Shown here in pieces: positions 3,251 through 64,000 of a stretch of DNA of 64,000 nt. The notes under the pieces were generated by a model. The model saw only the letters and a list, made by a program, of their open reading frames with translations. It was not told the origin of the DNA and made no database searches. Every line of letters starts with the position of its first letter. Positions within the stretch are counted from its first letter, which is position 1. Source of the stretch: Patescibacteria group bacterium. Its GTDB lineage: Bacteria > Patescibacteriota > Microgenomatia > Levybacterales > UBA12049. The DNA lies in assembly GCA_041743715.1 (NCBI GenBank), contig JBGTMH010000004.1, positions 1,097 through 65,096 on the forward strand, written 5' to 3'. A program made the translations under genes and the position numbers.

Positions 3251-3396
3251 AGTATACAGGAATCAAATTCACGGGTAGATTTGAATTATGGTTCATGGTA
3301 AAATACCTGATACAGATATTCCGCATGGTTTTCCAATTGGTTAATCAATTTTATCTGTAGATTCCGCGATAGCTCAGCGGTAGAGCAGGAAGCTGT

Positions 3397-3949
3397 AGCA
3401 CTTTTTATATAATTTGGTTATACTTTATGGTATGCCAGATAAGAGAACGTATACCGATCGCCGTGAGTATTTAATAATGGCTGTAGCTCGAAGAAGGAAA
3501 CGACTAAGAGCACGAGCAGTTGAATACAAAGGTGGTAAGTGTATTGTGTGTGGATACTGTCGTTGCCAAGCAGCGCTAGATTTCCACCATTTGGATCCAA
3601 CTCAGAAAGAGTTTGGTATCTCAATGGATGGGATAACGCGATCTTGGGAGCGAGTCCAGAACGAGTTAGACAAATGTGTTCTTGTCTGCTCCAATTGCCA
3701 CAGAGAAATACACGCAGGTATATTGCAGCCCTCTGGAGTAATCCAGGGAGGAAAAAATGGGGTGAACTCAGGGAAGCCGTATAAGGTAATCCTGAGCCAA
3801 GCTTAGCGAAAGACATAAGAGTAGCTAGGAAGGTGCAGAGACTAAGAGTGAGGAGTCAAACCAATAAGCTCTAAATAGCGCCCCACATCCTATTCATTTA
3901 TGAAGGATGATGAGATAGTCCACACTTCTGGAAACAGAAGATAAAAGTG
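3397..3949 (+). mobile_element. Group I intron (IC3-like) in the tRNA anticodon loop, carrying a homing-endonuclease ORF
   Basis: U (3396) precedes the 5' splice site and G (3949) ends the intron. gagccaagctt (3794-3804) and gaaggtgcagagacta (3829-3844) closely match the P5/P6 and J6/7-P7 core strings I recall from the Azoarcus tRNA-Ile and Anabaena tRNA-Leu introns. There is a GAAA-capped hairpin cttctg-gaaa-cagaag at 3925-3940. Exact junctions are inferred from the tRNA reconstruction. Confidence 0.75.
3432..3806 (+). CDS. HNH homing endonuclease (intron-encoded)
   Basis: MPDKRTYTDRREYLIMAVARRRKRL...GGKCIVCGY...LDFHHLDP...VLVCSNCHREIH: an HNH nuclease motif with two Cys pairs. The track ORF starts at TTG 3414; the first ATG is at 3432. 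The 3' end of the ORF runs into the conserved intron core. Confidence 0.8.
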   Translation: MPDKRTYTDRREYLIMAVARRRKRLRARAVEYKGGKCIVCGYCRCQAALDFHHLDPTQKEFGISMDGITRSWERVQNELDKCVLVCSNCHREIHAGILQPSGVIQGGKNGVNSGKPYKVILSQA

Positions 3950-4106
3950 TAACTTCAAGGTCCGAGGTTCGAATCCTCGTCGCGGAGCTGCAAAAAGAAG
4001 TCGGGATCTTATTCCGCTATTCTTTCAAAGAAATGTGTATTGCGATTGATTTTGGTAAGTGGCATAATATAGTGAAATAGTTATTAGGAAAGGTGGTGAA
4101 TAAATT

Positions 4107-14250: not shown

Positions 14251-15669
14251 ATGGTAAAAAAACTTTTAATCCTATCTGTTCTCTTTCTCCCTCTGCTTAC
14301 CATTATTGCGATTCCTGCTTTTTCCTCTAGTCATAGAGAAGCGCCAAATATTTCTGCTGATCCAAAAGCAGACGCGACTGATGTCTATGCATTCGTAAGT
14401 CCTGATAGCCCTAATACGGTAACACTCATTGCTAATTATTTCCCATTTCAGGAACCTGCTGGGGGACCAAATTTTTATTCATTTGATGACAATGCGCTTT
14501 ATGAGATAAAAATAGACAATGACGGCGACGCAAAGGAAGACATCTCGTATCAATTCAGATTTAAAACCAAAATTCAAAATAAAAATACATTCCTCTATAA
14601 TACCGGTGCAATTACTTCCCTAGCGGACACAGACTGGAATATCCGCCAAACATATTCGCTCACCAGAGTTGATGAAGATCGTCGCGGAAGAGATACAAAA
14701 CTCGGTCAAGATTTACTCACCCCACCATCTAATATCGGACCAAAGTCAACACCAGATTATGCAAATTTACAAGCAGCCGCTGTCAAAGAATTGCCAAATG
14801 GTATTAAAGTTTTTGCCGGTCAAAGCGATGATCCGTTCTTTGTAGACTTAGGGGGTATCTTTGATCTGTTGACTATACGCACTCTCCCTGGTAACGCAGG
14901 CGGAGGAGTTGATGGGTTGCGTGGATATAATGTCCAAACTCTGGCACTACAGATCCCTATTGACCAACTGACAAAGAATAAAACCAAGCCAACTGATCCT
15001 AAAGATGCAGCGGCAGTCATTGGAACTTGGACAACATCTTCAAGAGAATCTATCAGGATTTTACGAGATAATGGGGAAATCAAAAATACAGGTAACTGGG
15101 TTCAGGTATCGAGGCTTGGCGCACCGCTTGTCAACGAAGTAGTTATTCCTCTTGAGAAAAAAGATGTTTGGAATTCCTCAAAGCCTCAAAATGATGGACA
15201 GTTTGCCAATTACGTCACTGATCCTGAACTTGCAAAACTCCTGAATCTTCTCTATGGTATAACCGTTCCGCCACAGGGACCCTTTGGATCCGCAAATCAA
15301 CGTGATGATTTAATTGCTATCTTTTTAACTGGTATACCAAATCTGACAAATTCAGGTGTTACAAAACCGTCTGAGCAGTTGCGACTTAATACTGCCATTG
15401 CATCAAATGCTACACCTCTTAGATTGGGAGTATTAGCAGGGGATAACCAAGGGTATCCAAATGGGAGAAGGCTTGCTGATGATGTCGTAGATATCTCGTT
15501 ACAAGCAGTTGCGGGTGCAGCATATCCATTATTTCACCCAGGATTTACCCCTCATCCATTAGCAACACAGTTGGGAGATGGCGTCGATACGAATGAAAAG
15601 CCTTTTAGAACGAGTTTTCCATACCTTGCTTTGCCGACAAGTGGTTTTGATAGTGTCCCTCATCCGTAA
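14251..15669 (+). CDS. DUF4331 family secreted protein
   Basis: Signal peptide followed by SSHREAPNISADPKADATDVYAFVSPD, the DUF4331 N-terminal signature. Confidence 0.75.
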   Translation: MVKKLLILSVLFLPLLTIIAIPAFSSSHREAPNISADPKADATDVYAFVSPDSPNTVTLIANYFPFQEPAGGPNFYSFDDNALYEIKIDNDGDAKEDISYQFRFKTKIQNKNTFLYNTGAITSLADTDWNIRQTYSLTRVDEDRRGRDTKLGQDLLTPPSNIGPKSTPDYANLQAAAVKELPNGIKVFAGQSDDPFFVDLGGIFDLLTIRTLPGNAGGGVDGLRGYNVQTLALQIPIDQLTKNKTKPTDPKDAAAVIGTWTTSSRESIRILRDNGEIKNTGNWVQVSRLGAPLVNEVVIPLEKKDVWNSSKPQNDGQFANYVTDPELAKLLNLLYGITVPPQGPFGSANQRDDLIAIFLTGIPNLTNSGVTKPSEQLRLNTAIASNATPLRLGVLAGDNQGYPNGRRLADDVVDISLQAVAGAAYPLFHPGFTPHPLATQLGDGVDTNEKPFRTSFPYLALPTSGFDSVPHP

Positions 15670-15677
15670 ATAGTTTC

Positions 15678-16949
15678 GTGAATAAGAAAGTATTGCTCAT
15701 CGTTTTTTTACTCCTCAGTATCGTCGCAGTTTTTGGTTATGAGTTCTGGCAAGAGACGATCAATAGACAAAAACAGGACATCACAACTGTACAAAGCAGC
15801 ACCGATACGCTTATTGCAAATCTCGAACGTAAATTAGCAAACAAAAAAGATGATATAAATCTTTCTCTGTCTTTAGCAAATGCATATTTACAAAAGGTAC
15901 GGGAGACTGCGGATAGTGACTTGTATAAGAAAGTTGATGATCTTTTGGATAGTACAGAGAAAAAAAATCCAGACAATCCCGATATTTTGGCGACCCGCGC
16001 ACAAGTCGCTCTTGGACGGCATGATTTTGTTAAAGCATTAGAACTTGGTCAGCAAGCACAGCTTCAGAATCCTGAAAACGCCGTATATCTTGGAATCATC
16101 ACTGATGCCCATATTGAGTTGGGTAATTATGAGGAGGCTTTAAAATCGCTTCAAAAGATGATGGACATCAAACCTAACTACAGTTCCTTTACCCGCACAG
16201 CATATCTTCGTGAGCTGTATGGGGATAGAGAAGGTGCGCAGGAGGCATTAGAAAAAGCACAAAGCGCAGGTGCACCGTATCCAGAAAATAGTGCTGCCAA
16301 TTTGGTGGAATTGGGCAAACTCTACCTAAGAACTGATGTGAAAAAAGCAGACCAAACATTTAAGCAGGCACTGTCCGTTTACAAAGATTACCCACCTGCT
16401 TTGGAAGGATTGGGAAGCGTTGCTTTTGCGCGAAAAGAATATAAAAAAGCAATTAGCTATTTTGAAAAAGCTTTTCGTATTTTACCAATTGCCAACTATG
16501 CGACACATCTCGGTGATGTTTATACAAAAATTGGAGAAGGGGAGACTGCTAATAAATATTACATCTTAGCCAAAGTAGCTTATGAAAAGGCTGAACAAAG
16601 TGGCGTGAATACAGATTTGGAAGCGGCACTTTTTTTAGCTGACCATGATATAGAACTTGATCAAGCCCTCAAAAAAACACAGGCAGAGTACTTGGTGAGG
16701 CCCGATAATATTTATGTAGCGGACGCGTTAGCATGGACTTTACATAAAAACGGCAGATCAGAAGAGGCGCAAAAATATGTAGCCCTCGCAATGCGTTTGG
16801 GTGAGCATCATCCACTGATTCTTTTTCATGCTGGGGTGATTGCAGGGAAAAACAACAATCCCGAGGAGGCAAAACGGTTGTTTCAGAAAGCACTTAGTTT
16901 GCATCCGCATTTTTCACTACAATATGCGCAGGTTTTATCAGTACTCTAA
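15678..16949 (+). CDS. tetratricopeptide-repeat protein with N-terminal membrane anchor
   Basis: One N-terminal TM helix and multiple TPR-like A..Y......A repeats. Lies 8 nt after the DUF4331 gene. Confidence 0.7.
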   Translation: MNKKVLLIVFLLLSIVAVFGYEFWQETINRQKQDITTVQSSTDTLIANLERKLANKKDDINLSLSLANAYLQKVRETADSDLYKKVDDLLDSTEKKNPDNPDILATRAQVALGRHDFVKALELGQQAQLQNPENAVYLGIITDAHIELGNYEEALKSLQKMMDIKPNYSSFTRTAYLRELYGDREGAQEALEKAQSAGAPYPENSAANLVELGKLYLRTDVKKADQTFKQALSVYKDYPPALEGLGSVAFARKEYKKAISYFEKAFRILPIANYATHLGDVYTKIGEGETANKYYILAKVAYEKAEQSGVNTDLEAALFLADHDIELDQALKKTQAEYLVRPDNIYVADALAWTLHKNGRSEEAQKYVALAMRLGEHHPLILFHAGVIAGKNNNPEEAKRLFQKALSLHPHFSLQYAQVLSVL

Positions 16950-17749
16950 TGAGAAAGAAAATTTCACTTATCTTCCTATTTATCGTCACGACTAGTGTGA
17001 TGACTCCTCTTGTCTCGGCGCATGAACTTATCCCAAAAGAGGCAATCGAATATATCAAAGAACATCCAAATGCAACGGTTGAAGAGATACAGCAGTTTAT
17101 GGAAGAGAAAGCTCCTGGTTATAGCAAGAAATTTAAAGATAAACAGGATGCTGTTGCAGTCATTACCAATCAAGAGTCAAGCTTTTTTGATACAATTAAA
17201 GATTTTTTTGTACTAGGAATAAAACATATCCTTGAGGGGATAGATCATGTTTTATTCCTAGTGGCTTTACTCCTATCGTTTGTTTCTTTAAGAGAAATAA
17301 TCAAACTGACTGGTGCTTTTACTATAGCTCACACCATTACGCTTCTTTTAGCGGGAGCAAGTGTTCTCACAGTAAGCACAAAAATTGTGGAGCCGTTGAT
17401 TGCGTTTTCTATTGCCTATGTCGCGATTACCACAGTATTCTTAAAAAATACACTAGCTTTGGGAAAATCGAAATATAAATTGGCAACTGTTTTTTTCTTT
17501 GGACTGTTTCATGGGTTGGGTTTTGCGGGAATACTCCAGGAGATACAGATTCCAAAAGACAGATTTTTTTCCTCACTCATTTCGTTTAACCTCGGCATCG
17601 AGGTAGGACAAATTGTAATTATCGCTGCTGCTTTTCCAGTTATTTATTTTCTGAGAAAGAAAATATGGTATGGTACTTTTATCAAGGTAGTTGCAGCGAT
17701 TATAAGTATGATAGCTATTTTTTGGGGTTTTGAAAGAATTCTATCGTGA
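16949..17749 (+). CDS. HupE/UreJ-family membrane protein (putative Ni/Co or other metal transporter)
   Basis: GIKHILEGIDHVLFLVALLL motif with multiple TM helices. The start overlaps the TPR gene stop (TAATG). Confidence 0.7.
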   Translation: MRKKISLIFLFIVTTSVMTPLVSAHELIPKEAIEYIKEHPNATVEEIQQFMEEKAPGYSKKFKDKQDAVAVITNQESSFFDTIKDFFVLGIKHILEGIDHVLFLVALLLSFVSLREIIKLTGAFTIAHTITLLLAGASVLTVSTKIVEPLIAFSIAYVAITTVFLKNTLALGKSKYKLATVFFFGLFHGLGFAGILQEIQIPKDRFFSSLISFNLGIEVGQIVIIAAAFPVIYFLRKKIWYGTFIKVVAAIISMIAIFWGFERILS

Positions 17750-17764: not shown

Positions 17765-18274
17765 TTAATTTTTTGATCCTGCCGGCAAGCTTTCGCAAGC
17801 TTCACCGTCTTTGTCACCGTCGAGGCGGTTAACATCGTTTCCTTTACCGCCGACTTTCTGAAAGAAAGATTGGGACTCTGATTTGGTCGAGAAGTCATCA
17901 CAATTATAGTCATCAGCTTTTTTCCCTGCGGCTTTATCAGTAGTGATATTTCCCATCTTGTCAAAAAGAATATTTCCTTCTGAATCTCGGCTGACCTTTG
18001 ATTGCTCAAATGATTTGGTTTCCCAAAGCTTCCCTAAGTCAAAATCATTTTGTGATACTTCGAGTCCAAATGCTGCCAGGAGTGTAATAAATATAATAGC
18101 CAGAAAAATTCGTGCTTTTTCCCAGAGAACAAAAAGTACCCCGACAATTACCATGAGGGCAAGGATGAGACCCAATCGGAATTTCCTGTTTGCGCGAAGT
18201 TTGGAGAACTTTGAAGGTTCTTTCTGTTTTGTTTTCTCTTTTTCCTGATCAGTATCCTTTTCTTTCTCAGCCAT
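17765..18274 (-). CDS. Membrane-anchored protein with C-terminal Excalibur calcium-binding domain
   Basis: CDDFSTKSESQSFFQKVGGKGNDVNRLDGDKDGEACESL (Excalibur DxDxDGxxCE motif). ATG 18274 is preferred over the longer track ORF. Confidence 0.65.
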   Translation of the reverse strand: MAEKEKDTDQEKEKTKQKEPSKFSKLRANRKFRLGLILALMVIVGVLFVLWEKARIFLAIIFITLLAAFGLEVSQNDFDLGKLWETKSFEQSKVSRDSEGNILFDKMGNITTDKAAGKKADDYNCDDFSTKSESQSFFQKVGGKGNDVNRLDGDKDGEACESLPAGSKN

Positions 18275-18384
18275 GATGCAATGATAGACTACGTTCGTGC
18301 GTTTTGCAAGAGAGAATATATAATTCCAGCAACCACAGTTGATCATTAATTGACATACTAGTTGAATTCTTTTACTGTTAAGGT

Positions 18385-20943
18385 ATGCCTCATATTCAGC
18401 AGGTAGCGTTTATCAAAAATCATAAGAAACTCTTTGGCGTCATCAGCATCCTTGTGATTGCTTTTATTTTATCCTTAACCGTCTTCACTGCCCAACAGCA
18501 ACAAAATACCAATAGCAAAGCAATAAATGTAAAACGTGTGGCTTCAATTAGTGAGAAAAAGTTATTTGCCGCCCCTTCTTTACTGGCGATGAATAACCGA
18601 GTGGTCACGATTAGAAGAGCACCTGTATTTTCAACCACGTCAGTGAAAGGAAAATATGCCGGAAAACAAAATAATGGCGTTGCCGGTGTCATTATTAATG
18701 GGCCGATTCGGGTTTTTGATTCCTGGTGGTGGCATGTCGATTTTGATTCAGGTCCTGATGGCTGGACAAGTGAAGATTTCTTGAGAAAAATAAGCGGAGA
18801 TAATCCATCCCCTGAGCCTATACCTACTGGTGTGCCATATAGCCTGCAGGCTCCACTTATTGTTAATCTGGATCCTGCAAACAATTCCAAAGTAAACAGG
18901 TCATCGGTCGTAGTAAAAGGAGGAGTCGTCGACAGTGTCTCGCCTGCGTCGCAAATAAAAATGACTATTAATAATGAACCTGTGAATCTTACTGCTGATG
19001 GGGCCTTCCAAAAAGTGCTGCAATTACCTAATCGACAAAACGCGTTCAATTTCCGCACGTACGGTGCCGACAAAAATCCTCGTCAACAGACAAATGTTCT
19101 CACGGCATATCTTGACGGTTCCGTGATCTATGGCTCTGATGCCCAGCGCGCAGCAGCACTTCGTACATTCAGCGCAGGTAAGCTCAAAACTACTGCCGGC
19201 AATCTTCCTCCCTTAAACACCGAAGGCTTACCAAATACAAATGATGCGCATATTTTCCCAAATGACCAAATGTTCCTTGCAGGCGACACGAGATCCAATG
19301 AAAATATAGAACTTACCGCAACCCATACGCTCTTTATCCGCGAACATAATTTACTCGCTGATGCAATTGCAAGGCAATATCCAGCTTTAACTGATGAGGA
19401 AATTTATCAGAGTGCCCGGCAAATTGTTGCGGCAGAATTACAGGTAATTACCTATAAAGAATTTATCCCTGCGCTCTTAGGTTCCAATGTCTTACCTCCT
19501 TATAATGGATACAAACCAAACGTCAATGCTGGTATTGCCAATGAATTCTCAACAGCGGCATTTCGTATCGGGCATACACTCGTCAACGATGATGTGGAAT
19601 TTTTTGATAATGAAGGCGAAGAAGTTCGTGAGGAGTTAGAGCTTGCTGAAGCTTTTTTCAATCCCCACGTATTAAGAGAAACAGGTCCTGATCCGATTTT
19701 GAAATATTTAGCTACAGATAACGCACAGGAAGTTGATACAAAAATAGTGAGAGGCCTACGAGACTTTCTCTTCGGACCTGCAGGTGCCGGAGGATTAGAT
19801 CTGGCTTCACTAAATATCCAACGCGGCCGTGATCATGGGCTTTCGGATTATAATACAACTCGGAAAGCATACGGCCTGCCGCCTATCACAAATTTTAATC
19901 AGATTACAAGTAATATAGAACTGCAGCAAAAACTCAGGGACGTTTACGGGAATGTCAATAATATTGATCTTTGGGTGGGAGGTCTGGCTGAAGATCATGT
20001 AAGTGGTACCAGTGTCGGTCAGACGTTTCAGAAAATTATGGCAGATCAGTTTATACGACTGCGGGATGGAGATCGCTTTTGGTATCAGCGAAATTTTTCA
20101 GGCAAACAGCTTGCAGCTCTGGAATCCACCCGGCTTTCGGATGTTATACGACGGAATACCACAATTACCAAATTACAAGATAATGTCTTTTTCTTTGACG
20201 AAGATACAACGCTTCCAAGTCTGGTTGCAAAAGCTGGATCAATCCCAGATGGATTAATCGGTAATGGAAACCGTCCAAATAAAAATGCCTTCGTGCCGTT
20301 TGATGCGTATGGGAATAATAAAACATATCCATATTGGGGACAAGCCGGAGTTGCGTTGGTCAGGATGGCACCGGCATCGTATGCAGATGGTATTGCAACT
20401 CCAGCAGGACCCAGCAGACCAAGCCCACGGCTTATTAGTAACATGGTTGCCTCTCAAAGTGCTGAAGAAATGGGTGAAGATGCTCCAAGAAATAACCGTC
20501 AGATATCTGACTGGATTTATGCGTGGGGACAATTCATTGATCATGATTTTGGTCTCACAAGCGGTTCATCGGAAGCTTTCCCTATTCAAGTACCCAAAGG
20601 TGATCCGTTATTTGATCCTGAAAAGACCGGAGGACAGATTATCCCACTGAGACGCTCAATGTATGACGTCGGAACAGGGACAGGGACGACGAAATATCGT
20701 GATATGAACTATATGCTGCGTGTTTCACACCTGTCAATTGGTAAAATAATCAAATTGAAAGGATTACATAAACTCTATGCAAATCCTTCCATTCAAGGTC
20801 AGGAACTCTATAGGCATAACGTCAGCGCTGAAGGAACAATACTCGCTGGACCTATCGCAGCAGAAGGTCAAAACTGGTGGCGTATTTACAGCCAAGGAAA
20901 AAGCGGCTGGATCCCCGAATCTGCACTGGATGATAATCCGTAG
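18385..20943 (+). CDS. Animal-haem-peroxidase family protein with non-canonical (circularly permuted) segment order, flanked by SH3b-like domains
   Basis: TNVLTAYLDGSVIYGS, FLAGDTRSNE, LFIREHN, FRIGHTLV, LNIQRGRDHGLSDYN and DGDRFWY come first (aa ~223-600). DAYGNN...WGQAG...YADG...WGQFIDHDFG...PKGDPLFDP...IPLRRS follow at aa ~635-758. N-terminal TM anchor. SH3-like W-rich domains lie at aa ~70-135 and ~775-850. Confidence 0.8.
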   Translation: MPHIQQVAFIKNHKKLFGVISILVIAFILSLTVFTAQQQQNTNSKAINVKRVASISEKKLFAAPSLLAMNNRVVTIRRAPVFSTTSVKGKYAGKQNNGVAGVIINGPIRVFDSWWWHVDFDSGPDGWTSEDFLRKISGDNPSPEPIPTGVPYSLQAPLIVNLDPANNSKVNRSSVVVKGGVVDSVSPASQIKMTINNEPVNLTADGAFQKVLQLPNRQNAFNFRTYGADKNPRQQTNVLTAYLDGSVIYGSDAQRAAALRTFSAGKLKTTAGNLPPLNTEGLPNTNDAHIFPNDQMFLAGDTRSNENIELTATHTLFIREHNLLADAIARQYPALTDEEIYQSARQIVAAELQVITYKEFIPALLGSNVLPPYNGYKPNVNAGIANEFSTAAFRIGHTLVNDDVEFFDNEGEEVREELELAEAFFNPHVLRETGPDPILKYLATDNAQEVDTKIVRGLRDFLFGPAGAGGLDLASLNIQRGRDHGLSDYNTTRKAYGLPPITNFNQITSNIELQQKLRDVYGNVNNIDLWVGGLAEDHVSGTSVGQTFQKIMADQFIRLRDGDRFWYQRNFSGKQLAALESTRLSDVIRRNTTITKLQDNVFFFDEDTTLPSLVAKAGSIPDGLIGNGNRPNKNAFVPFDAYGNNKTYPYWGQAGVALVRMAPASYADGIATPAGPSRPSPRLISNMVASQSAEEMGEDAPRNNRQISDWIYAWGQFIDHDFGLTSGSSEAFPIQVPKGDPLFDPEKTGGQIIPLRRSMYDVGTGTGTTKYRDMNYMLRVSHLSIGKIIKLKGLHKLYANPSIQGQELYRHNVSAEGTILAGPIAAEGQNWWRIYSQGKSGWIPESALDDNP

Positions 20944-24671: not shown

Positions 24672-26921
24672 ATGGCACAAGAATATATCCAGATTCGCGG
24701 CGCTCGCGAAAACAATCTGAAGAATGTCTCGCTTACTATACCGAAGCGTAAAATAACGATATTTACTGGAGTTTCAGGCTCTGGTAAATCATCGATAGTA
24801 TTTGATACCATTGCCACAGAAGCCCAGCGTCAGCTCAATGAAAACTTCAGCGCTTTTATCCGTGGCTTTCTACCGAGGTATTCGCAGCCTGATGCTGATG
24901 CAATTGAAAATTTAAGTATGGCAATTGTTGTCGATCAGAAACGTATGGGTGGCGGATCGCATTCGACTATGGGGACAATTACCGATATTTATACTGTGTT
25001 GCGGCTTTTGTTCTCTCGCGTCGGCAAACCGTTTGTCGGGTATTCCAATGTGTTTTCTTTTAATGATCCCCAAGGCATGTGTCCTGACTGTAATGGATTA
25101 GGACGAAAGATAGGTATTAACTCCGATGGTTTTTTGGATATGACCAAGTCGCTCAATGAAGGCGCTGTTCAGGTTCCTCTGTTCGTTGTTTGGGAGAAGG
25201 AAAGTTATAAAAGTTCAGGATTTTTTGATAACGATAAAAAACTCTCAGATTTTACCCCCGAGGAAATGGATTTACTCTTGCATGGCAAAGACCGCAAGTT
25301 TAAATTTAAAATTGGTGAAGGTACGATGAACGCAACCTACCTTGGGATTATTGAAAAGCTTACCCGTTCATATATCAAACGCGATATCAAAACGTTATCA
25401 GAACGCACACAAAAAATGGTTGCACCGTATCTAACGTTTGGTCCATGTGATCTGTGCCGCGGAACCCGCCTCAGCCAAGCGACGCTCAGTTGCAAAATAA
25501 ACGGCCGCAATATCGCTGAACTTTCCTCAATGGAAGTAACCGAGTTGCTCCAGGTAATCAAAGCAATAAAAGATCCGGTTGCGACGACAATGGTCAAGAC
25601 ATTAACAGAACGTTTGCAGCACGTGAGTGATATCGGTCTTGAATATCTCAGTCTTAACCGTGAAACTGACACATTATCTGGTGGAGAATCACAGCGAATC
25701 AAAATGGTCAAACATCTCTCAAGTAGTCTGGTCGATGTGATGTATATTTTTGATGAACCAAGTGTGGGCCTGCATCCACGGGATGTACATCGTTTGAATG
25801 AATTGTTACAAAAATTACGTGATAAAGGGAATACCGTTATTGTGGTCGAGCATGATCCTGATGTCATAAAAGTTGCTGATTACATCGTTGATGTCGGACC
25901 ACACGCAGGAAGCAGGGGAGGTACGATTGTTTACGAAGGAAGCTTTGCTGATCTGCTCAAAGCAGATACATTGACCGGCAAACACATGAGTCAATCTTTG
26001 CCGATCAAAGAAACGTTTCGTCCTGCCAAAGGCAAGCTTCCGATTGTGAACGCCAACAAAAATAATCTGCAAAACGTCAGTGTCGATATCCCGACTGGTG
26101 TGCTGACGGTCATAACTGGTGTTGCCGGTTCGGGTAAAAGTTCACTCATCCATCAGGTTTTTCTCAAACAGCATCTCGATGCCATCGTCATCGACCAATC
26201 AGCAGTCGGAGCTAACTCCCGTTCCAATCCTGCCACGTATACAGGCATTATGGATGACGTGCGCAAAGCGTTTGCTGATGCAAATAAAGTAAATGCAGGA
26301 TTATTTAGCTTCAATTCCACAGGTGCCTGCGAAAATTGTCAGGGACAAGGGGTGGTATATACAGACTTAGCATTCCTGGATGCTGTCAAAAGTCCATGCG
26401 AAGTCTGTGGTGGAAAGCGTTTCAAAGATGAAGTGCTGAAATACACATTGAACGGTAAATCTATCGCGGATGTACTAGAGATGACTGTCGAGCAAGCGCT
26501 TAATTACTTTAGTATCCGTGATATCGTCCGCAAGTTACAATCGATGAGTGATGTGGGTTTGAATTATCTAAAGCTCGGACAGCCACTGAACACACTCTCA
26601 GGTGGCGAATGTCAAAGAATCAAATTAGCAAGTGAATTGCACAAAAAAGGAAGTATTTATGTGATGGATGAGCCGACAACTGGTCTGCATATGTCTGATT
26701 TAAGCCATTTATTAACAATCATGAACAGTCTTGTCGATAAGGGCAACACAGTCATTGTCATAGAACACAACCTCGACGTAATCAGAAATGCTGATTGGAT
26801 TATCGACATGGGTCCCGAAGGTGGCTCGAAGGGTGGGAAAGTTATGTTCGAGGGTACTCCAAAACAGCTGCTTTTAGCAAAACATTCACTAACAAGTGAG
26901 TATTTGCAGAAATCATTATGA
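24672..26921 (+). CDS. UvrA-family ABC ATPase, short (UvrA2-like) form
   Basis: IRGARENNLKN, two Walker A motifs (GVSGSGKSS and GVAGSGKSS), two LSGGE signatures and Zn-finger Cys pairs. It is 749 aa versus ~940 aa for canonical UvrA. Confidence 0.85.
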   Translation: MAQEYIQIRGARENNLKNVSLTIPKRKITIFTGVSGSGKSSIVFDTIATEAQRQLNENFSAFIRGFLPRYSQPDADAIENLSMAIVVDQKRMGGGSHSTMGTITDIYTVLRLLFSRVGKPFVGYSNVFSFNDPQGMCPDCNGLGRKIGINSDGFLDMTKSLNEGAVQVPLFVVWEKESYKSSGFFDNDKKLSDFTPEEMDLLLHGKDRKFKFKIGEGTMNATYLGIIEKLTRSYIKRDIKTLSERTQKMVAPYLTFGPCDLCRGTRLSQATLSCKINGRNIAELSSMEVTELLQVIKAIKDPVATTMVKTLTERLQHVSDIGLEYLSLNRETDTLSGGESQRIKMVKHLSSSLVDVMYIFDEPSVGLHPRDVHRLNELLQKLRDKGNTVIVVEHDPDVIKVADYIVDVGPHAGSRGGTIVYEGSFADLLKADTLTGKHMSQSLPIKETFRPAKGKLPIVNANKNNLQNVSVDIPTGVLTVITGVAGSGKSSLIHQVFLKQHLDAIVIDQSAVGANSRSNPATYTGIMDDVRKAFADANKVNAGLFSFNSTGACENCQGQGVVYTDLAFLDAVKSPCEVCGGKRFKDEVLKYTLNGKSIADVLEMTVEQALNYFSIRDIVRKLQSMSDVGLNYLKLGQPLNTLSGGECQRIKLASELHKKGSIYVMDEPTTGLHMSDLSHLLTIMNSLVDKGNTVIVIEHNLDVIRNADWIIDMGPEGGSKGGKVMFEGTPKQLLLAKHSLTSEYLQKSL

Positions 26922-58020: not shown

Positions 58021-61000
58021 TTAATTTGTATTGAGGGCTGTTTCTTTTGGTTCTTCGGGTGTCGTTTGACTGATTTGGATGATCATTTCAGTTTCTGAAA
58101 AGGCTATACCGATCGGGATGGTCTTCAGCGCGTTTGGTGGGACGATTGCTGTTATCGATGCGTTCGTTCCTAAGTAATACTTTTTACCGGCTTGTAAATC
58201 TTTAAAGCCTTTTGCTTTGCCGCCGATAATGATAAGAATTTCTTCACCTTCTTTTGCGTCATGCGCTGCTATGCCGATTACATCTGAGCGGTCGATACTG
58301 ACTGCATCGGCTTTCTTCACAATTCCGGATTCTGAAATATAGAGTGCATCTCTTGCTTTGAGATCTGCGCCGGCTGTTGCGGTGATAGTGATTCCTCCCT
58401 CAATTTGTATATTGCCGCCGACTTTGACTTTGCCTTTGACATCTAAGTTCTTGGCAATCTTCACATCACCCTTTGTCTGGAGTGTACCGTTTCGGTCGAT
58501 GGTTACAGCACCGTCAAAGAGATCAATCAGATTGGCAAGGGCAGATTTCTGTAAGTAGAGGATACCATCAGTTGGTTCCTGGCCGTTTTCGACTGGTGTA
58601 CCGGAGACACTGATTGCGTCTTCTGTAATAGAAAGCTTACCTGCGACATTGATTCTTTCATCAACTGTCAGGACACCAGAGATTGCTGTTTCTTCAAGCG
58701 TTGTTTTACCAGTTACCATGACATCACCGGCAATTGTTGTTTCTCCGAGATATGATTTGCCAAATGATTGGAACGTGTCTTCGACGGTTAATTTATACGC
58801 AGTGAATTCTCCTGGAAGCGTTGCGGTGGAGGCAATGCTTGTCGTGTTCGGTGTTGCGGAATCACTGGCGATTAGCGTATCAGGTGATGTGAGATTTTCA
58901 GATGATGGTGTCACTGTCTCTGCTACAGGTGTTCCTGACGGTGTCGCGGTCGGTGTCACACTGCCACTGATTCGGGCCAGGAGATCATCAATTTTCTTAT
59001 TTAATACCTCGACATCCGCGGAAGCTGATGAGTTCTTGAGTTCATTAATCGTCTTGTTTAAGTTCGCGATTTCAGCAGATACTGAAGCTTGTTGGGTTTC
59101 AAGACCGGCAACTCTTGTGTCGATTGCATCGGCTCTGGCTGTTACATTGTAGATGTCTGTTTGGAGACTACTGATAGCGTTTCTGTCAGTTGTCAAACTG
59201 TCACTAATCGCAATCAATGCATCATTCAGCGTACCGTTGATTTCTTTCGTGCCGATTTGTAGGGTCGAAGGCAAGGTGATTTTGTCGGTACTGACGTTCT
59301 GAACAATTGACGCGTCTGACAGACCGTTTACTAAATTCGCTAAGACATTGGTTGGATCAGCGTAGGTGATATTAACAAATACGGTGATCTTACCAGTACA
59401 ATTGTCCGCACAAGTGAAGTCTTCAAGCGCTTTACCCAAAACCTGTCCTGGCTTCGTGGCTTTCATCGCGACTCCAATTGTTGAGGAAGAGGTCAGATAA
59501 TCACCTTTGTGGATAGATCCACCCTCCATTGAGACTTTCACTGGTACCCGTCCAGCGAGTGCGACTGGAATTGCTTTGCCACCATTGATGGTATCACTTA
59601 TCTGAGAAAGTCTAAATCCTGGCTTTTCTGAATAAATACCCAGAATAGTATTGTCATAGGCAGTTGTGGATTTCTGGACATGACCATCTGTTGTTGCGTC
59701 AACCGAGACAACATCGCCACTTTCTATACTTTCGTCGCGGGTCGCGTAATCTTCAGCCAAGTCATAATTCCCGCCAGATGTCGTAAGCGTTCCAGCGAGA
59801 GATGCGTTACCAGTGCTGTCGATAGAGAAGAGATCGGTGTTGGCCGCATTCTTAAAGATAAATTTATTTGCATTTGTTCCAGTCGTGTCGGTTGCGAGTT
59901 GTTCAATGATATTGCCATTCTCAGCCCGTATCGTTCCCGCATCTGTCTCAAAGGTATTTGCTTTGACTGTACTTGAGGTAGTGAGCTTACCAGATGCATC
60001 GACATTGAGTTGTCCACTTATGCCAAAGCTAGCTGTCTCAGCTGAGAGGGAAGCGGTAGTCTCTGCTTCAACAGTGGCAACTCGATCGGTGAGTGCGAGT
60101 AATTGTGTTTGGATATCATCGAATTGAGCGGAACTACTGCTCGAGTTTTCAAGATTGTTAAGTCTATCGCCGAGATTTTGCCCATCAAGTATGAGGTCTT
60201 TGACATCAATACCACCGGCTCGCAGATTGCCAATAACTGCATCTTCGAAGATTCCTTTTCGGGTGATATTGTTGCCGTCCTGATCTTGAAGTGTATACGC
60301 TGGAGATTGACCAAGAATAGTTATATCACCAGTATTTGTTATTTGGATGGGCGATTCAACAAGTGAGGAGTCATAAAAGACTGATATTTTCTTATGTTTA
60401 ATACCATTAATTGTTTCAGTTTCAGTAGACCAATCAACGATTTCACCGGCACGTCCGAAGACATAACTGATGGGATAAATGCCAGGGTCTTTCATAGCAT
60501 GACCTTGAATGTCTGATGATATGAGAGGATCACCAGGTTGAATATTTTTACCGTTATCAATGACCCAAACATCACCGTTTCCAACGGCCATTACTTGATG
60601 AGGGTTTGTAGGTCCGAAGGGTTGAGTCGGTTCAAGCAAACTAAGATATGAACCAAGAATACTGGGATCGTTGGCTTGGGTTGTTTTCTTAATACCATAG
60701 ATTAGCTCACCGCCTGGTCTGTCATAAAGCGTTCTATTATCGCCTGTCATGGTAACAAGCATGCCACGTTCTATATTTTCATCTGTCCTAGCATAATGAG
60801 AGCCGGTAAAGGCATTATAAGAGACAGTAGTGCCTGAGACAGAAATTGTTCCTTCGACAGTACCAGCTTGTGTTAAGTTGACTATCGCACCATCACTAGT
60901 TGTACGATTAAATTCAGCAACGACAGCACCTGATGCTTCAGCATCAAATGCAAAGCCAGGTGTAGCCGTGCCAACTCCTACTCTCGCATTTGTTGTATCT

Positions 61001-64000
61001 ATATTTAGTACAGGTGTGCTAGAGCCTGACTGTTCCCATTGGAAGGCGTCGGTGGCGTTGGTTACACTCTTGAACAGGGCGCTGCCATCGACGTAGAAGG
61101 TTTCGGTAACGGCGGTTTGGGTACCACTAATGATGACGCTTCCATCATTATCAACTGTCAGTCGACGGGTAAGCCCAGCACCGGATACGGCTGATCCATA
61201 GTCGCCGATAAAGAAGTCGCCGGTATTTGTGGCCGTGGCATCGACACCGAAGAAGAAGGTCTTCCAGGGGTTAGCTCCGTCGAAACGATGGAGCATGAAA
61301 GCGGCCGAGTTTGCGCCGCGGTCAATTCTGGCAACACCTTCAATATGAAGTTCACGCGCTGGGGCCTCCACGTTAATACCTACGCGTGAGTTCGTCGTGT
61401 TAACGACAAGCGTATCGTTCGTAGCGCCGGCATTCTGGACTCTGAAGGCTGCGGTAGAATCAGCCCCTGGCTTAACGAGTACACCTGTGTTAGTTGTTCC
61501 ACCCGGAGTAATGTTGATATTGTTAGCCCCTGTGCTCGTAAGATTGAGGGTGGTACCGGAAGTGAGACCGACAGTGCTGCCGCTTTGGAGAGAAATAGCA
61601 CCTGCTGAACCGTTGCCAATTGTGGTGGTGGCAGTTCCTGAATTGTTAATCAAGGTTGTTCCCGTTGCTGTCAATCCAGCTGATGCAGTCAACAGTCCTG
61701 CAAATGTTCCTGTTCCACTGCCTGTTGTTGAGATATTGCCTGATGTTGTGAGAGCATCCCCAGCAGTTGAAGGAGAAAGGGTAGTGCCACTTCTTCCCCA
61801 ATACCCAACCGTTCCACTCGTCGCACACACCTGACCGCTGATACAGATAGTGCCGGTAGCATTTGGCAGAGTCCAGGTCTGTGCAGCTGTCGCGAGTGAG
61901 TCCACGGTACTGAGGACGCTATTTGTTCCGGCAAATTTAATATTACCGTTATTGGCGATAGCAAACTTGGTCGCTCCACTCTTGGAAGCGGCGAAAATGT
62001 CTCCCACGCCGTCGTTATTAACAACCATTGATGCAAAAGAGGTTCGACCTGATATTGAGGCAACTGGGATAGTGCCTGAATCACCACGGACATCGATTTC
62101 AGCTTGAGGAGAGAAGTTATTTAAACCAAAGCCCCATCTGCCGTCGGTTGTTAGGACTGATTGGATACCGCCTGCAGGGCTATTATAGAACGTTAATTCA
62201 CCCGAAGCGCTGTAAAGCATATAGGAATTGCTGCTGCCATCCCGGGGGTTCAGTCTCAGTCCACTTGCGTTTCCGCTTACACCGATTATCCCTACTACAT
62301 CAAGTTTTTCTCCGGGGGTAGTTGTCCCAATCCCGACACTGCCGCTATTATCAATCACAAATGGGCTAGCATCCGCGTCTCCTGTCTCATCGTTGACTCT
62401 AAAGGAAATACCTGTTCCTAAATTGGTAACCATGCTGACGGTTCCAGTATTATTTGCGCCTGTTGAAGATACTTTGAAGAGGGTCCCGGTATTTGCAGCA
62501 TTGTTGCCTGTTAGGGAGATGTTGACGAGTCCATCGGTATCGGTAAATCCTGTTGCGCTTGAGGTAAGAGAAAGAGCAGAGCCTGTTGTTAAGGAATTTG
62601 CAGTGATCGTTGTTGCGTTGGTCGTGTTGCCGGTAAAGAGCTGAGAAAATTGTCCTGTTCCTGATTCAAGGCTAAGATTTTTATTTGCTGCAACACTGAG
62701 GTTATTATTAATGGTGGTTGTTCCTGTACTAGCGCCGATTGATAACGTGGTAGCACTTGTACCAAAATTAATGCCAGTGGTAGAGGCAGTTGATAGGAGA
62801 TTAAATGTGCCTGCTGTCGCGGATGAGAGATCATTGCCGTTGACAATCAAATCATCAGCAATCGTAACATCTCCTGATCCTAAGAAGTTGAAGGCAGGGT
62901 TGGTTGTCGCATTACCAAACTCGATTTTTTCTGTTGTGTTGGATGTCGAGATAGTAATGTAGTTATTTAATCCTTCTTGAATGTCCAAAGCATCAGCATT
63001 GTTGTCGACTAAATTGGCTGTAATATCATTGTTTGCGCCACTGGCAGATAATGTGACTGTTGTTCCTGACAAAGTGATCGCGTCGCCGCCGTCACCGATA
63101 GTTGCTATGCCATTGGCATCAAAAGTCTTGCCGTCGGCAACGGTGAGTGCATTATTTACTGTGGTTGTTCCCGTTGTTGCACCCAAGGATACTGTGGTAG
63201 CAGAGCCACCGATATTCAGTGTTGTAACCGATGCATTATTAAAGACAGAAGCTGTGCTGGTCGTTGAGGTAATATCAGCAGAAGTTGCGCCGTTGATTGC
63301 CAAGTCTCCAGATGTTGTGACATCTCCTGTTAAGAGGGAAGTTCCATCAACAGTTAATGTCCCGTTGGTCTGGATATTTCCCGTTGTAGCGATAGTTGCA
63401 CCTGTTGATCCATAACCGCCGCCGACATTGAGGATATTAAAGGCTGCGGTTGCGGATGTTGCATTGAATGCATCTGCTTGGGAGAAACTGACCGTGTCAT
63501 TTCTTATATCTAACGTCCCGGCATTATTGGCTCCTATTGCTAAGGTGGTGGCAGCGCCGGCAAAGTTCACTGTTGTCGCAGTCGCGTTGAAGAGATTTGC
63601 TGTTAGTTCATCGGTCGCGATAGTGCCGCCATTGGCATTTATGGTTCCATTGGTTGAGAAGTCACCGTTCGATCCAGTAATTGACCAATTTGTGCCTGAT
63701 AAATCATTGGCTCCCGTGAGAAGTGCGTTATCGATTTCAGCATCTGAGACATCAATTGCCGTTGTGATAGTACCGGCTGCGGATTGAATCTTCAAACCAA
63801 TCGGCTGTGCCAAATTGGTGTCAAGATTATCAATCAAGACCAACTGAGAGGGGGAGTTGGTACCAGCACCATCAGCTCTTTGGAAGATTGATCCTCCGGT
63901 TGAATTGGTTGCTGTGGTGACCGAGAAGTTGGAATCTGTTGCATCATCAGCCAGTGTGAAGGCGATATTTCTATTCGAGCTTGTTGTGATTGTGTTGCCT
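58021..64000 (-). CDS. Giant repetitive surface/fibre-like protein (more than 1990 aa; N-terminus outside the window)
   Basis: The frame stays open to the window edge (the track M at 63843 is a TTG inside the ORF). Long Thr/Gly/Ala/Asn-rich beta-repeat region, recurring ARVGIGT..P...L.V modules, coiled-coil stretches, and repeated I..GD.L..S...G.AMK motifs in the C-terminal third. Confidence 0.8.
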   Translation of the reverse strand, partial: GNTITTSSNRNIAFTLADDATDSNFSVTTATNSTGGSIFQRADGAGTNSPSQLVLIDNLDTNLAQPIGLKIQSAAGTITTAIDVSDAEIDNALLTGANDLSGTNWSITGSNGDFSTNGTINANGGTIATDELTANLFNATATTVNFAGAATTLAIGANNAGTLDIRNDTVSFSQADAFNATSATAAFNILNVGGGYGSTGATIATTGNIQTNGTLTVDGTSLLTGDVTTSGDLAINGATSADITSTTSTASVFNNASVTTLNIGGSATTVSLGATTGTTTVNNALTVADGKTFDANGIATIGDGGDAITLSGTTVTLSASGANNDITANLVDNNADALDIQEGLNNYITISTSNTTEKIEFGNATTNPAFNFLGSGDVTIADDLIVNGNDLSSATAGTFNLLSTASTTGINFGTSATTLSIGASTGTTTINNNLSVAANKNLSLESGTGQFSQLFTGNTTNATTITANSLTTGSALSLTSSATGFTDTDGLVNISLTGNNAANTGTLFKVSSTGANNTGTVSMVTNLGTGISFRVNDETGDADASPFVIDNSGSVGIGTTTPGEKLDVVGIIGVSGNASGLRLNPRDGSSNSYMLYSASGELTFYNSPAGGIQSVLTTDGRWGFGLNNFSPQAEIDVRGDSGTIPVASISGRTSFASMVVNNDGVGDIFAASKSGATKFAIANNGNIKFAGTNSVLSTVDSLATAAQTWTLPNATGTICISGQVCATSGTVGYWGRSGTTLSPSTAGDALTTSGNISTTGSGTGTFAGLLTASAGLTATGTTLINNSGTATTTIGNGSAGAISLQSGSTVGLTSGTTLNLTSTGANNINITPGGTTNTGVLVKPGADSTAAFRVQNAGATNDTLVVNTTNSRVGINVEAPARELHIEGVARIDRGANSAAFMLHRFDGANPWKTFFFGVDATATNTGDFFIGDYGSAVSGAGLTRRLTVDNDGSVIISGTQTAVTETFYVDGSALFKSVTNATDAFQWEQSGSSTPVLNIDTTNARVGVGTATPGFAFDAEASGAVVAEFNRTTSDGAIVNLTQAGTVEGTISVSGTTVSYNAFTGSHYARTDENIERGMLVTMTGDNRTLYDRPGGELIYGIKKTTQANDPSILGSYLSLLEPTQPFGPTNPHQVMAVGNGDVWVIDNGKNIQPGDPLISSDIQGHAMKDPGIYPISYVFGRAGEIVDWSTETETINGIKHKKISVFYDSSLVESPIQITNTGDITILGQSPAYTLQDQDGNNITRKGIFEDAVIGNLRAGGIDVKDLILDGQNLGDRLNNLENSSSSSAQFDDIQTQLLALTDRVATVEAETTASLSAETASFGISGQLNVDASGKLTTSSTVKANTFETDAGTIRAENGNIIEQLATDTTGTNANKFIFKNAANTDLFSIDSTGNASLAGTLTTSGGNYDLAEDYATRDESIESGDVVSVDATTDGHVQKSTTAYDNTILGIYSEKPGFRLSQISDTINGGKAIPVALAGRVPVKVSMEGGSIHKGDYLTSSSTIGVAMKATKPGQVLGKALEDFTCADNCTGKITVFVNITYADPTNVLANLVNGLSDASIVQNVSTDKITLPSTLQIGTKEINGTLNDALIAISDSLTTDRNAISSLQTDIYNVTARADAIDTRVAGLETQQASVSAEIANLNKTINELKNSSASADVEVLNKKIDDLLARISGSVTPTATPSGTPVAETVTPSSENLTSPDTLIASDSATPNTTSIASTATLPGEFTAYKLTVEDTFQSFGKSYLGETTIAGDVMVTGKTTLEETAISGVLTVDERINVAGKLSITEDAISVSGTPVENGQEPTDGILYLQKSALANLIDLFDGAVTIDRNGTLQTKGDVKIAKNLDVKGKVKVGGNIQIEGGITITATAGADLKARDALYISESGIVKKADAVSIDRSDVIGIAAHDAKEGEEILIIIGGKAKGFKDLQAGKKYYLGTNASITAIVPPNALKTIPIGIAFSETEMIIQISQTTPEEPKETALNTN

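Follow-up and report, generated by a model that had tools for sequence, protein, structure and literature searches.

Can a haem peroxidase be encoded with the first quarter of its catalytic domain placed behind the rest, and still be a complete enzyme? This question is raised by a 64,000-nucleotide (nt) stretch of DNA from a Patescibacteria group bacterium (contig JBGTMH010000004.1; hereafter the window, whose own numbering is used below), in which a single complete and uninterrupted open reading frame (ORF) at 18385..20943 on the + strand encodes a protein of 852 amino acids (aa). From the N- to the C-terminus the protein comprises a signal anchor, an SH3-like module, an Ig-like domain, a permuted haem peroxidase domain and a second SH3-like module. 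An earlier note, made from the sequence, had given the positions of the ORF and of its peroxidase motifs, and all were found where it put them. The present analysis confirms that the ORF carries one complete animal-type haem peroxidase domain that is circularly permuted at the sequence level: the domain occurs once and in full, with its last three-quarters coming first and its first quarter following after a linker. In our view the product is likely to be an exported haem peroxidase, probably anchored in the membrane, that belongs to the peroxidase-cyclooxygenase superfamily and whose catalytic domain is a natural circular permutant.

Permuted Order of the Peroxidase Domain

The domain falls into two segments. 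The core, segment C (19075..20190, + strand, aa 231-602), corresponds to the canonical C-terminal three-quarters and holds the calcium loop T240-S246, Arg303, Glu306, His397, Asn477 and GDRFW; its motifs begin at residues 242 (YLDGSVIYG), 300 (GDTRSNE, containing Arg303), 319 (REHN), 393 (FRIGH, containing His397), 480 (RGRDHG) and 562 (GDRFW). A linker of about 36 residues (20191..20298, + strand, aa 603-638) then leads from the old C-terminus of the fold to its old N-terminus, where the relocated segment D begins (20299..20700, + strand, aa 639-772). Segment D is the canonical N-terminal quarter, with its motifs in the order YGNNK, WGQFIDHD, VPKGDPLFDP, IPLRRS and YDVGTGTGTT. WGQFIDHD starts at residue 714 and contains Gln716, Asp719, His720 and Asp721. 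As the earlier note proposed, the N-terminal segment with the distal Gln, Asp and His, roughly 130 aa long, now follows the core on its C-terminal side.

Profile searches bear out this order. Against the Pfam model PF03098 (animal haem peroxidase) the whole protein scored 518.2 bits (cut-off 25; E = 3e-155) in two stretches, the pair of non-collinear matches that had been predicted for such a scan. When the pieces were scanned singly against the 530 positions of the model, aa 231-602 matched positions 142-530 (442.8 bits) and aa 639-764 matched positions 4-140 (78.8 bits), so that the two tile the model once, without gap, overlap, loss or duplication. The best solved match is CyanoPOX from Cyanobacterium sp. 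TDX16 (8s6c, 528 aa; 528.7 bits in total, 43% identity by Foldseek), which, like LspPOX from Lyngbya, is a bacterial lactoperoxidase-like enzyme of the same superfamily. Here aa 232-615 aligned to residues 132-518 (423 bits) and aa 639-766 to residues 6-129 (110 bits), segment D as a whole ending at CyanoPOX residue 129/130. E-values of the permuted matches span 1e-22 to 1e-155, far beyond chance. CyanoPOX runs in the canonical order, 6-129 followed by 132-518, whereas in the window's protein the two are swapped and joined by the 36-aa linker. With PF03098 positions 142-530 preceding positions 4-140, the collinear order of the family is not followed, and the protein is a topological variant of the superfamily rather than a standard member.

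Recurrence of the Order in a Large Family

A search of 5.8 billion proteins returned an identical protein (100%; P0001, in NCBI on one 78,190-nt contig) and 119 relatives. Segment C precedes segment D in 118 of these 120 closest proteins, and the exceptions, P0027 and P0097, each have two peroxidase domains in tandem (order D-C-D-C). The permuted relatives stem from NCBI, JGI, ENA and Logan assemblies. When one genome was scanned for each species, 29 permuted loci from about 29 species emerged, almost all in metagenome-assembled genomes (MAGs) of Verrucomicrobiota (Chthoniobacter, Udaeobacter, Luteolibacter, Terrimicrobiaceae, Opitutaceae), with a few binned as Pseudomonadota, Dormiibacterota or Pirellulaceae. 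The earlier note had suggested a search for orthologues of equal order; by these results the protein does not stand alone and belongs to a large and mostly verrucomicrobial family. Databases label its members "peroxidase family protein" or "hypothetical," and the NCBIfam models gave no match to the permuted protein.

These counts bear directly on the possibility that pieces of one or two canonical genes were joined in the wrong order by assembly or gene calling. In favor of such an artefact, only one NCBI contig underlies the window, and the exact protein is represented by one member from one contig. However, the same order, linker and termini recur in the 118 of 120 nearest proteins, from several assembly sources, and at the 29 genome loci; the reading frame is unbroken; a search for DNA repeats at the junctions of the permuted gene found none; and the nucleotide composition of the gene resembles its surroundings and is uniform over the region. 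The earlier note had proposed read mapping as a check for misassembly, which is excluded here, without read mapping, by the order shared across the family. The probability of an artefact is close to nil.

An exhaustive HMMER search of 1.84 billion representatives at 50% identity placed the family in a wider frame. It yielded 3,586 homologues at E ≤ 1e-30, and domain order was classified for the best 150 of them: 131 have the canonical order D then C, 4 the window's order C then D, 5 the tandem order D-C-D-C, 1 the order C-D-C and 4 the order "D-C-D," while 5 consist of the core only. For phylogenetic trees, the D and C pieces were cut and rejoined in canonical order (162 units, 485 columns; neighbor joining with bootstrap). 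The window's permuted class, which counts at least 118 protein clusters, forms one clade in 100 of 100 bootstraps, amid canonical relatives, and its sister is a set of single-domain canonical proteins (P0127, P0138, P0161, P0198). P0124, a divergent protein of order C then D, falls with the clade in only 25 of 100 replicates. Nearest to the window's protein is P0002 (67% identity), followed by P0028 and the short forms P0112 and P0114.

The Break Site and the Linker

In the canonical chain the region around the break reads continuously as WGQFxDHDxxLT...VPxGDPxFDP...RSxYDxxTGTxxxNPRQQxNxxTxxxDxSxxYGS. In the permuted class the domain ends in ...IPLRRSMYDVGTGTGTT and starts in ...NPRQQTNVLTAYLDGSVIYGS; the C-terminal end at the break reads ...RRSMYDVGTGTGTT, and the N-terminal start ...NPRQQTN. 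By this comparison the break sits within the loop RS-YD-TGT / NPRQQ, with nothing duplicated. In the minimal members of the family (P0112, P0113, and P0115) the signal peptide runs directly into NPRQQ.

The earlier note had read the sequence FRTYGADKN, ahead of the core, as a stub of the RTxDGxCNN motif left at the old position. This reading was rejected. FRTYGADKN lies inside a match to PF09136 (aa 163-237), is not conserved (the family consensus at this place is GxNxFTxxAxTPN), and is absent from the short members, which start at NPRQQ. We read it as the final strand of that Ig-like match.

The linker follows the pattern QDNVFFFD...LDGxGNN, with several nearly invariant Leu and Pro positions across the family, and is modelled without regular secondary structure at a predicted local distance difference test score (pLDDT) of 73-92. 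The layout C-linker-D would permit complementation within a chain or between chains, and human MPO (myeloperoxidase) and EPO (eosinophil peroxidase) are two-chain enzymes, MPO being a dimer. The active site might thus be built between chains, in a domain-swapped dimer or oligomer, or the linker might be cleaved after folding to leave a two-chain, MPO-like enzyme. The conserved linker residues suggest instead a packed and intact linker, the monomer model is confident, and the closest solved bacterial homologue is reported as a single chain (PMC11776367), which together make an inter-chain or cleaved enzyme improbable.

Active Site and Predicted Fold

The superfamily is recognized by the signatures GQxxDHD and RxxE and by a proximal His with its Asn (PMC4420034), and each is present in the window's protein. 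GQxxDHD, which supplies the halide Gln, the ester Asp, the catalytic His and the calcium Asp, is found as WGQFIDHD at 714-721. RxxE, with the distal Arg and the ester Glu, is found as R303 and E306 in GDTRSNE, which align with CyanoPOX R199 and E202. The proximal His and Asn, joined by a hydrogen bond in the superfamily, are H397 (FRIGH) and N477 (LNIQRGRDHG), aligned with CyanoPOX H294 and N376. The active site of CyanoPOX is defined by crystallography as distal H81 with D80 beside it, R199, E202, proximal H294 and N376 (PMC11776367), and the conserved active-site residues of the permutant map one-to-one onto these six. The two proteins also share the distal Gln and the calcium ligands, and CyanoPOX is without disulfides.

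In alignments of 49 and of 105 permuted sequences, R303, E306, H397, N477, Q716, D719, H720, D244 and S246 are invariant; W714, G715, F717, R757 and S758 are likewise invariant in the family alignments, and D721 is kept in at least 90% of permuted sequences. All catalytic residues are thus retained, as the earlier note held, in proteins that diverge by 35-45% overall. This pattern suggests that the active site is under purifying selection. It also speaks against the protein being a decayed remnant of a tandem two-domain ancestor, with C and D derived from different copies and an inactive, binding or structural role. Tandem D-C-D-C proteins do exist, the evolutionary review speaks of inactive "dead-end" members of the superfamily (PMC4420034), and model confidence is low over the final ~45 residues of the domain. 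But the invariance of catalytic, haem-ester, proximal and calcium-site residues would be unexpected under decay, PF03098 is tiled in full, and the domain is modelled with high overall confidence, and we regard a decayed remnant as very improbable.

Structure prediction was consistent with a single folded domain. The full-length AlphaFold model (852 aa) has a mean pLDDT of 80 and a predicted template modelling score (pTM) of 0.76, with the core above 90; the model of the domain only (aa 231-772), made with the 105-sequence alignment, has a mean pLDDT of 87 and a pTM of 0.90. In the latter, segment D has a pLDDT of 79-93 through the distal-His helix, the helix itself standing at ~93, and the last ~45 residues reach only 55-69. 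Superposition of segment C on the heavy chain of MPO gave a template modelling (TM) score of 0.72-0.75 and a root-mean-square deviation of 3.1-3.6 Å; the Foldseek alignment is sequential, and this superposition concerns the core segment. The structural check proposed by the earlier note has yielded a confident domain model and a match of the core to a known peroxidase, while closure of the haem pocket rests on pTM, pLDDT and conservation. On these grounds the two pieces would rebuild a normal haem pocket within one chain.

A Second Permuted Class and the Myeloperoxidase Cut

The C-then-D order is not the only rearrangement of this fold among the homologues. A second permuted class comprises P0200, P0231, P0251 and P0259, proteins of 844-4928 aa from MAGs of Pirellulales/Planctomycetaceae. 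These have one WGQFxDHD motif after the core, and the VPxGDPxFDP...RS...NPRQ piece stays before it, so that their break lies at about residue 728/729 in the numbering of the window's protein, directly after the distal-His helix. Like the window's protein, they fuse the old termini, with the core followed by a linker and the distal-His segment. The class forms its own group in 66 of 100 bootstraps and groups with the window's clade in 0 of 100, which indicates that it probably arose by an independent event. The piece that remains N-terminal in these Planctomycetes proteins is the counterpart of aa 721-772, the stretch modelled with low confidence in the window's protein. One of them, P0251, has WGQFITHD, with a Thr in place of the ester Asp.

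MPO and EPO share the fold of the window's protein, and they demonstrate that this fold survives interruption of the chain between the distal-His helix and the core. Residues 14-100 of their light chains (104 aa deposited) align to aa 643-729 of the window's protein; light-chain residue 100 equals residue 87 of segment D, and the light-chain C-termini map to about residues 729-730. The MPO heavy chain begins ~42 residues ahead of the NPRQQ-equivalent position. The second class therefore breaks within at most ~2 residues of the MPO/EPO light/heavy proteolytic site, and the window's class ~43 residues downstream of the MPO cut. Together these breaks show that an unbroken backbone is not needed in this surface region. 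The routes differ: MPO and EPO become two-chain enzymes by proteolysis after synthesis in canonical order, whereas the peroxidase gene of the window already encodes the permuted order, with the former termini joined.

A broader proposal can be drawn from these comparisons, namely that animal-type haem peroxidases of bacteria have been permuted at least twice independently, giving a large, mainly verrucomicrobial clade and, at the very loop cut in human MPO, the giant Planctomycetes proteins, and that both are active subfamilies in which targeting modules (Ig-like and SH3b-like) were grafted beside the substrate channel to bring oxidants to the cell wall. The new termini would then sit beside the calcium site and the distal face. 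We put this proposal forward tentatively, as falling somewhat short of an even chance.

Origin of the Permutation

Natural circular permutants are known from folds unrelated to that of the peroxidases, as in swaposin versus saposin and concanavalin A versus favin, where the fold is the same and the termini are shifted. Such proteins are usually explained by duplication and deletion, and concanavalin A by post-translational transposition. For the peroxidase, the first of these routes would consist of a tandem duplication of the canonical domain followed by loss of the outer D and the outer C. The existence of present-day tandem D-C-D-C proteins (P0121, P0122, P0123, P0145, P0207, P0211, P0027, and P0097) makes it plausible, since they hold the C-then-D junction internally, as duplication followed by deletion requires. 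Identity to the window's protein is 36-50% for P0121, P0122, P0123, P0145, P0027, and P0097. Duplicated peroxidase domains are also mentioned in the evolutionary review of the superfamily (PMC4420034). Unlike the permutant, "long peroxicins" and the tandem D-C-D-C proteins have a complete canonical unit on either side.

The earlier note had favored this same route. Its plausibility stands on the extant tandem proteins, and the remnant that it cited in support was not borne out. The tandem proteins are not the nearest kin of the permuted clade, whose sister is formed by single-domain canonical proteins, and neither DNA repeats nor duplicated remnants were found at the junctions; for these reasons the permutation event is probably ancient. 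Among the tandem proteins themselves, the two peroxidase copies of P0145 are ~90% alike, which points to a recent duplication, and P0027 and P0097 additionally bear a PF18962 domain (type IX secretion C-terminal sorting).

Flanking Modules and Membrane Anchor

The N-terminus has a basic stretch followed by a hydrophobic helix, KKLFGVISILVIAFILSLTVFTAQQQ (18424..18501, + strand, aa 14-39), which is evident in the sequence and as a helix over residues 14-39 in the AlphaFold model. There is no obvious AxA cleavage site, and the helix would be either a signal anchor or a signal peptide left uncleaved, with the rest of the protein outside the cytoplasm. The membrane anchor named in the earlier note would correspond to this hydrophobic helix, from which we infer the topology.

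Next comes a putative beta-barrel module of SH3b-like type, WWWHVDFDSGPDGW (18577..18804, + strand, aa 65-140; beta-strands 72-135 in the model), and a second one ends the protein (20701..20940, + strand, aa 773-852; beta-strands 771-844). The two align with 28% identity over 53 aa by BLASTP (E = 1e-8) and are paralogues; each is modelled with 6-7 short strands, and the pattern GP...WW...GW is invariant. The C-terminal module matches PF06347 SH3_4 at E = 9e-5 (22.6 bits, below the cut-off of 24.1) and PF08239 SH3_3 at 16.8 bits (below the cut-off of 27), and the window's own N-terminal module has no Pfam SH3 match. Of 19 modules from the family, 10 match PF08239 SH3_3 at E < 1 (best E = 5e-5), and profile matches of the module in the PDB are nearly all SH3 domains, weak ones at E ≥ 0.07. 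The label "SH3b-like" is therefore reasonable and lies below the Pfam threshold. The two related modules described by the earlier note are there; its SH3b assignment is sub-threshold, and its bracketed arrangement is restricted, with the C-terminal module found, among the 120 proteins, only in P0001 (the window's protein) and P0002. Modules homologous to the N-terminal one occur in ~100 relatives, most of the family.

Between the N-terminal module and the core lies an Ig-like domain resembling glucodextranase domain B (18871..19074, + strand, aa 163-230; beta-strands 158-226 in the model). Its PF09136 match on the full protein is marginal (aa 163-237; 28.0 bits, cut-off 27) and drops to 26.4 bits when the sequence is cut at aa 224. 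PF09136 or PF17957 is recorded on several relatives, and an Ig-like domain is common in the family. CyanoPOX has neither SH3-like nor Ig-like modules and ends instead in a PEP-CTERM sorting motif.

Proposed Activity and Physiological Role

In the proposed enzyme, the chain would begin with NPRQQ and the calcium loop and proceed through the Arg/Glu, proximal-His and C-terminal helices and the ~36-residue linker to the distal Gln-x-x-Asp-His-Asp helix and the RS-YD-TGT end. The calcium site would clamp the new N-terminal loop T240-S246 onto the C-terminal distal helix through Asp721. Ferric haem b would be bound, and esters with Asp719 and Glu306 might form once the enzyme has met H2O2; reaction of H2O2 with the haem, aided by His720 and Arg303, would give compound I, which would oxidize a halide or pseudohalide (at Gln716) or small organic donors outside the cytoplasm. 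By analogy with those SH3b domains that bind peptidoglycan, the flanking modules may tether the enzyme to peptidoglycan or another envelope polymer. The role of "cell-wall-associated oxidant generator" is speculation. Architecture and conservation are observed directly, whereas the chemistry, location and physiological role would follow from comparison with characterized relatives.

Several points weigh against this enzyme as proposed. The last ~45 residues of the domain (aa 721-772, 20545-20700) reach a pLDDT of only 53-69 in both models, and the placement of the distal His over the haem iron is deduced from pTM, pLDDT and conservation rather than from a measured distance. Haem binding, activity and substrate of the permutant are all deduced by homology. 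The SH3b assignment lies under the Pfam gathering scores, the trees that support the clade are simple neighbor-joining trees, and the 29 loci share no kept neighbor that would point to an H2O2 source or a pathway. Ester haem links are known in mammalian peroxidases, but the haem of CyanoPOX, the nearest solved relative, is non-covalent as isolated, and an ester linkage in the permutant is uncertain for that reason (PMC11776367).

The direction of the chemistry can also be read differently. With the same architecture, the enzyme could be protective, removing H2O2 at the envelope, or could cross-link or oxidize organic polymers, rather than produce hypohalous or hypothiocyanous oxidants. CyanoPOX, a demonstrated peroxidase with iodide as its best substrate, readily converts aromatics as well (PMC11776367). 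The same 29 loci show no conserved H2O2-producing partner, and one verrucomicrobial sublineage has genes for an extracytoplasmic function (ECF) sigma factor and for an LTXXQ/Spy-like envelope-stress protein upstream of the peroxidase gene. Against this, the halide-associated Gln716 and the ester-forming Asp719 and Glu306 are invariant, and halide oxidation dominates in the studied members of the superfamily (PMC4420034). We hold a protective or cross-linking role to be possible but rather doubtful, and the exported oxidant-producing peroxidase to be the better account of the gene.

Significance of the Permuted Topology

Among the members of the superfamily are myeloperoxidase, lactoperoxidase, thyroid peroxidase, peroxidasin and the cyclooxygenases, and in the detailed accounts of its evolution and classification a permuted topology has apparently gone unnoted. 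The earlier note was aware of no described permuted member. No paper tying circular permutation to this superfamily came up in a literature search that covered subscription journals in part, and the word "permutation" is absent from the evolutionary review (PMC4420034) and from the CyanoPOX structure paper (PMC11776367). The enzyme family is well known, and its permuted topology is widespread and apparently undescribed.

A natural, widespread and apparently functional permutant indicates that the fold tolerates re-wiring of its backbone, and the two permuted classes together mark the surface loops where it does so. Such a permutant is of direct use in engineering split or permuted peroxidases, for example as bacterially expressible lactoperoxidase-like biocatalysts or sensors. 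Annotation is affected as well: pipelines based on collinear hidden Markov models or alignments will report permutants as two fragments or as truncated domains. For ecology, the family points to an oxidative enzyme that is common in Verrucomicrobiota of soil and freshwater, probably acts outside the cytoplasm and has gone unexplored.

Gene Neighborhood and Other Features of the Window

The peroxidase gene is surrounded by a DUF4331-TPR-HupE/UreJ cluster, a divergent Excalibur membrane protein, a YbaK-type editing domain and an ArsR regulator, none obviously tied to it. A short way upstream, at 14251-17749 (+ strand), three consecutive genes for DUF4331 (E = 1e-158), a TPR protein and a membrane protein of HupE/UreJ_2 type look like a putative metal-related cluster, which is not kept beside peroxidase orthologues. 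Between this cluster and the peroxidase, a gene at 17765-18346 (− strand) encodes a small membrane protein with a C-terminal Excalibur calcium-binding domain, divergent from the peroxidase, which needs calcium too.

Among the 29 permuted loci, no gene neighbor is conserved beyond lineage-specific synteny. The P0002 locus is not syntenic with the window; a gene for an NlpC/P60 peptidoglycan hydrolase (L030, 7261-7761) lies directly upstream of the P0002 peroxidase and has no counterpart in the window. At six loci (L002, L006, L012, L022, L024, and L026), an ECF-type sigma factor, a putative small anti-sigma factor and an LTXXQ (Spy/CpxP-like) periplasmic protein are encoded ~0.1-2 kb upstream. 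This trio, confined to one verrucomicrobial sublineage, hints at regulation of the peroxidase by envelope stress.

Three further features of the window lie apart from the peroxidase. At 3363-3990 (+ strand), a tRNA gene is split by a ~560-nt group I intron (Rfam RF00028, 89 bits, core 3710-3941) that holds an HNH homing-endonuclease-like ORF (3414-3806, 130 aa); ARAGORN made no tRNA call here. A short UvrA-family paralogue of 749 aa (24672-26921, + strand) shares 78-85% identity with proteins that carry the labels Parcubacteria, Levybacteria, Patescibacteria, Dyadobacter, Roseiflexaceae and Vitreimonas, an unusually high conservation across phyla that suggests frequent horizontal transfer. Near the window end, a very long ORF of 1940 aa occupies 58021-63843 on the − strand.

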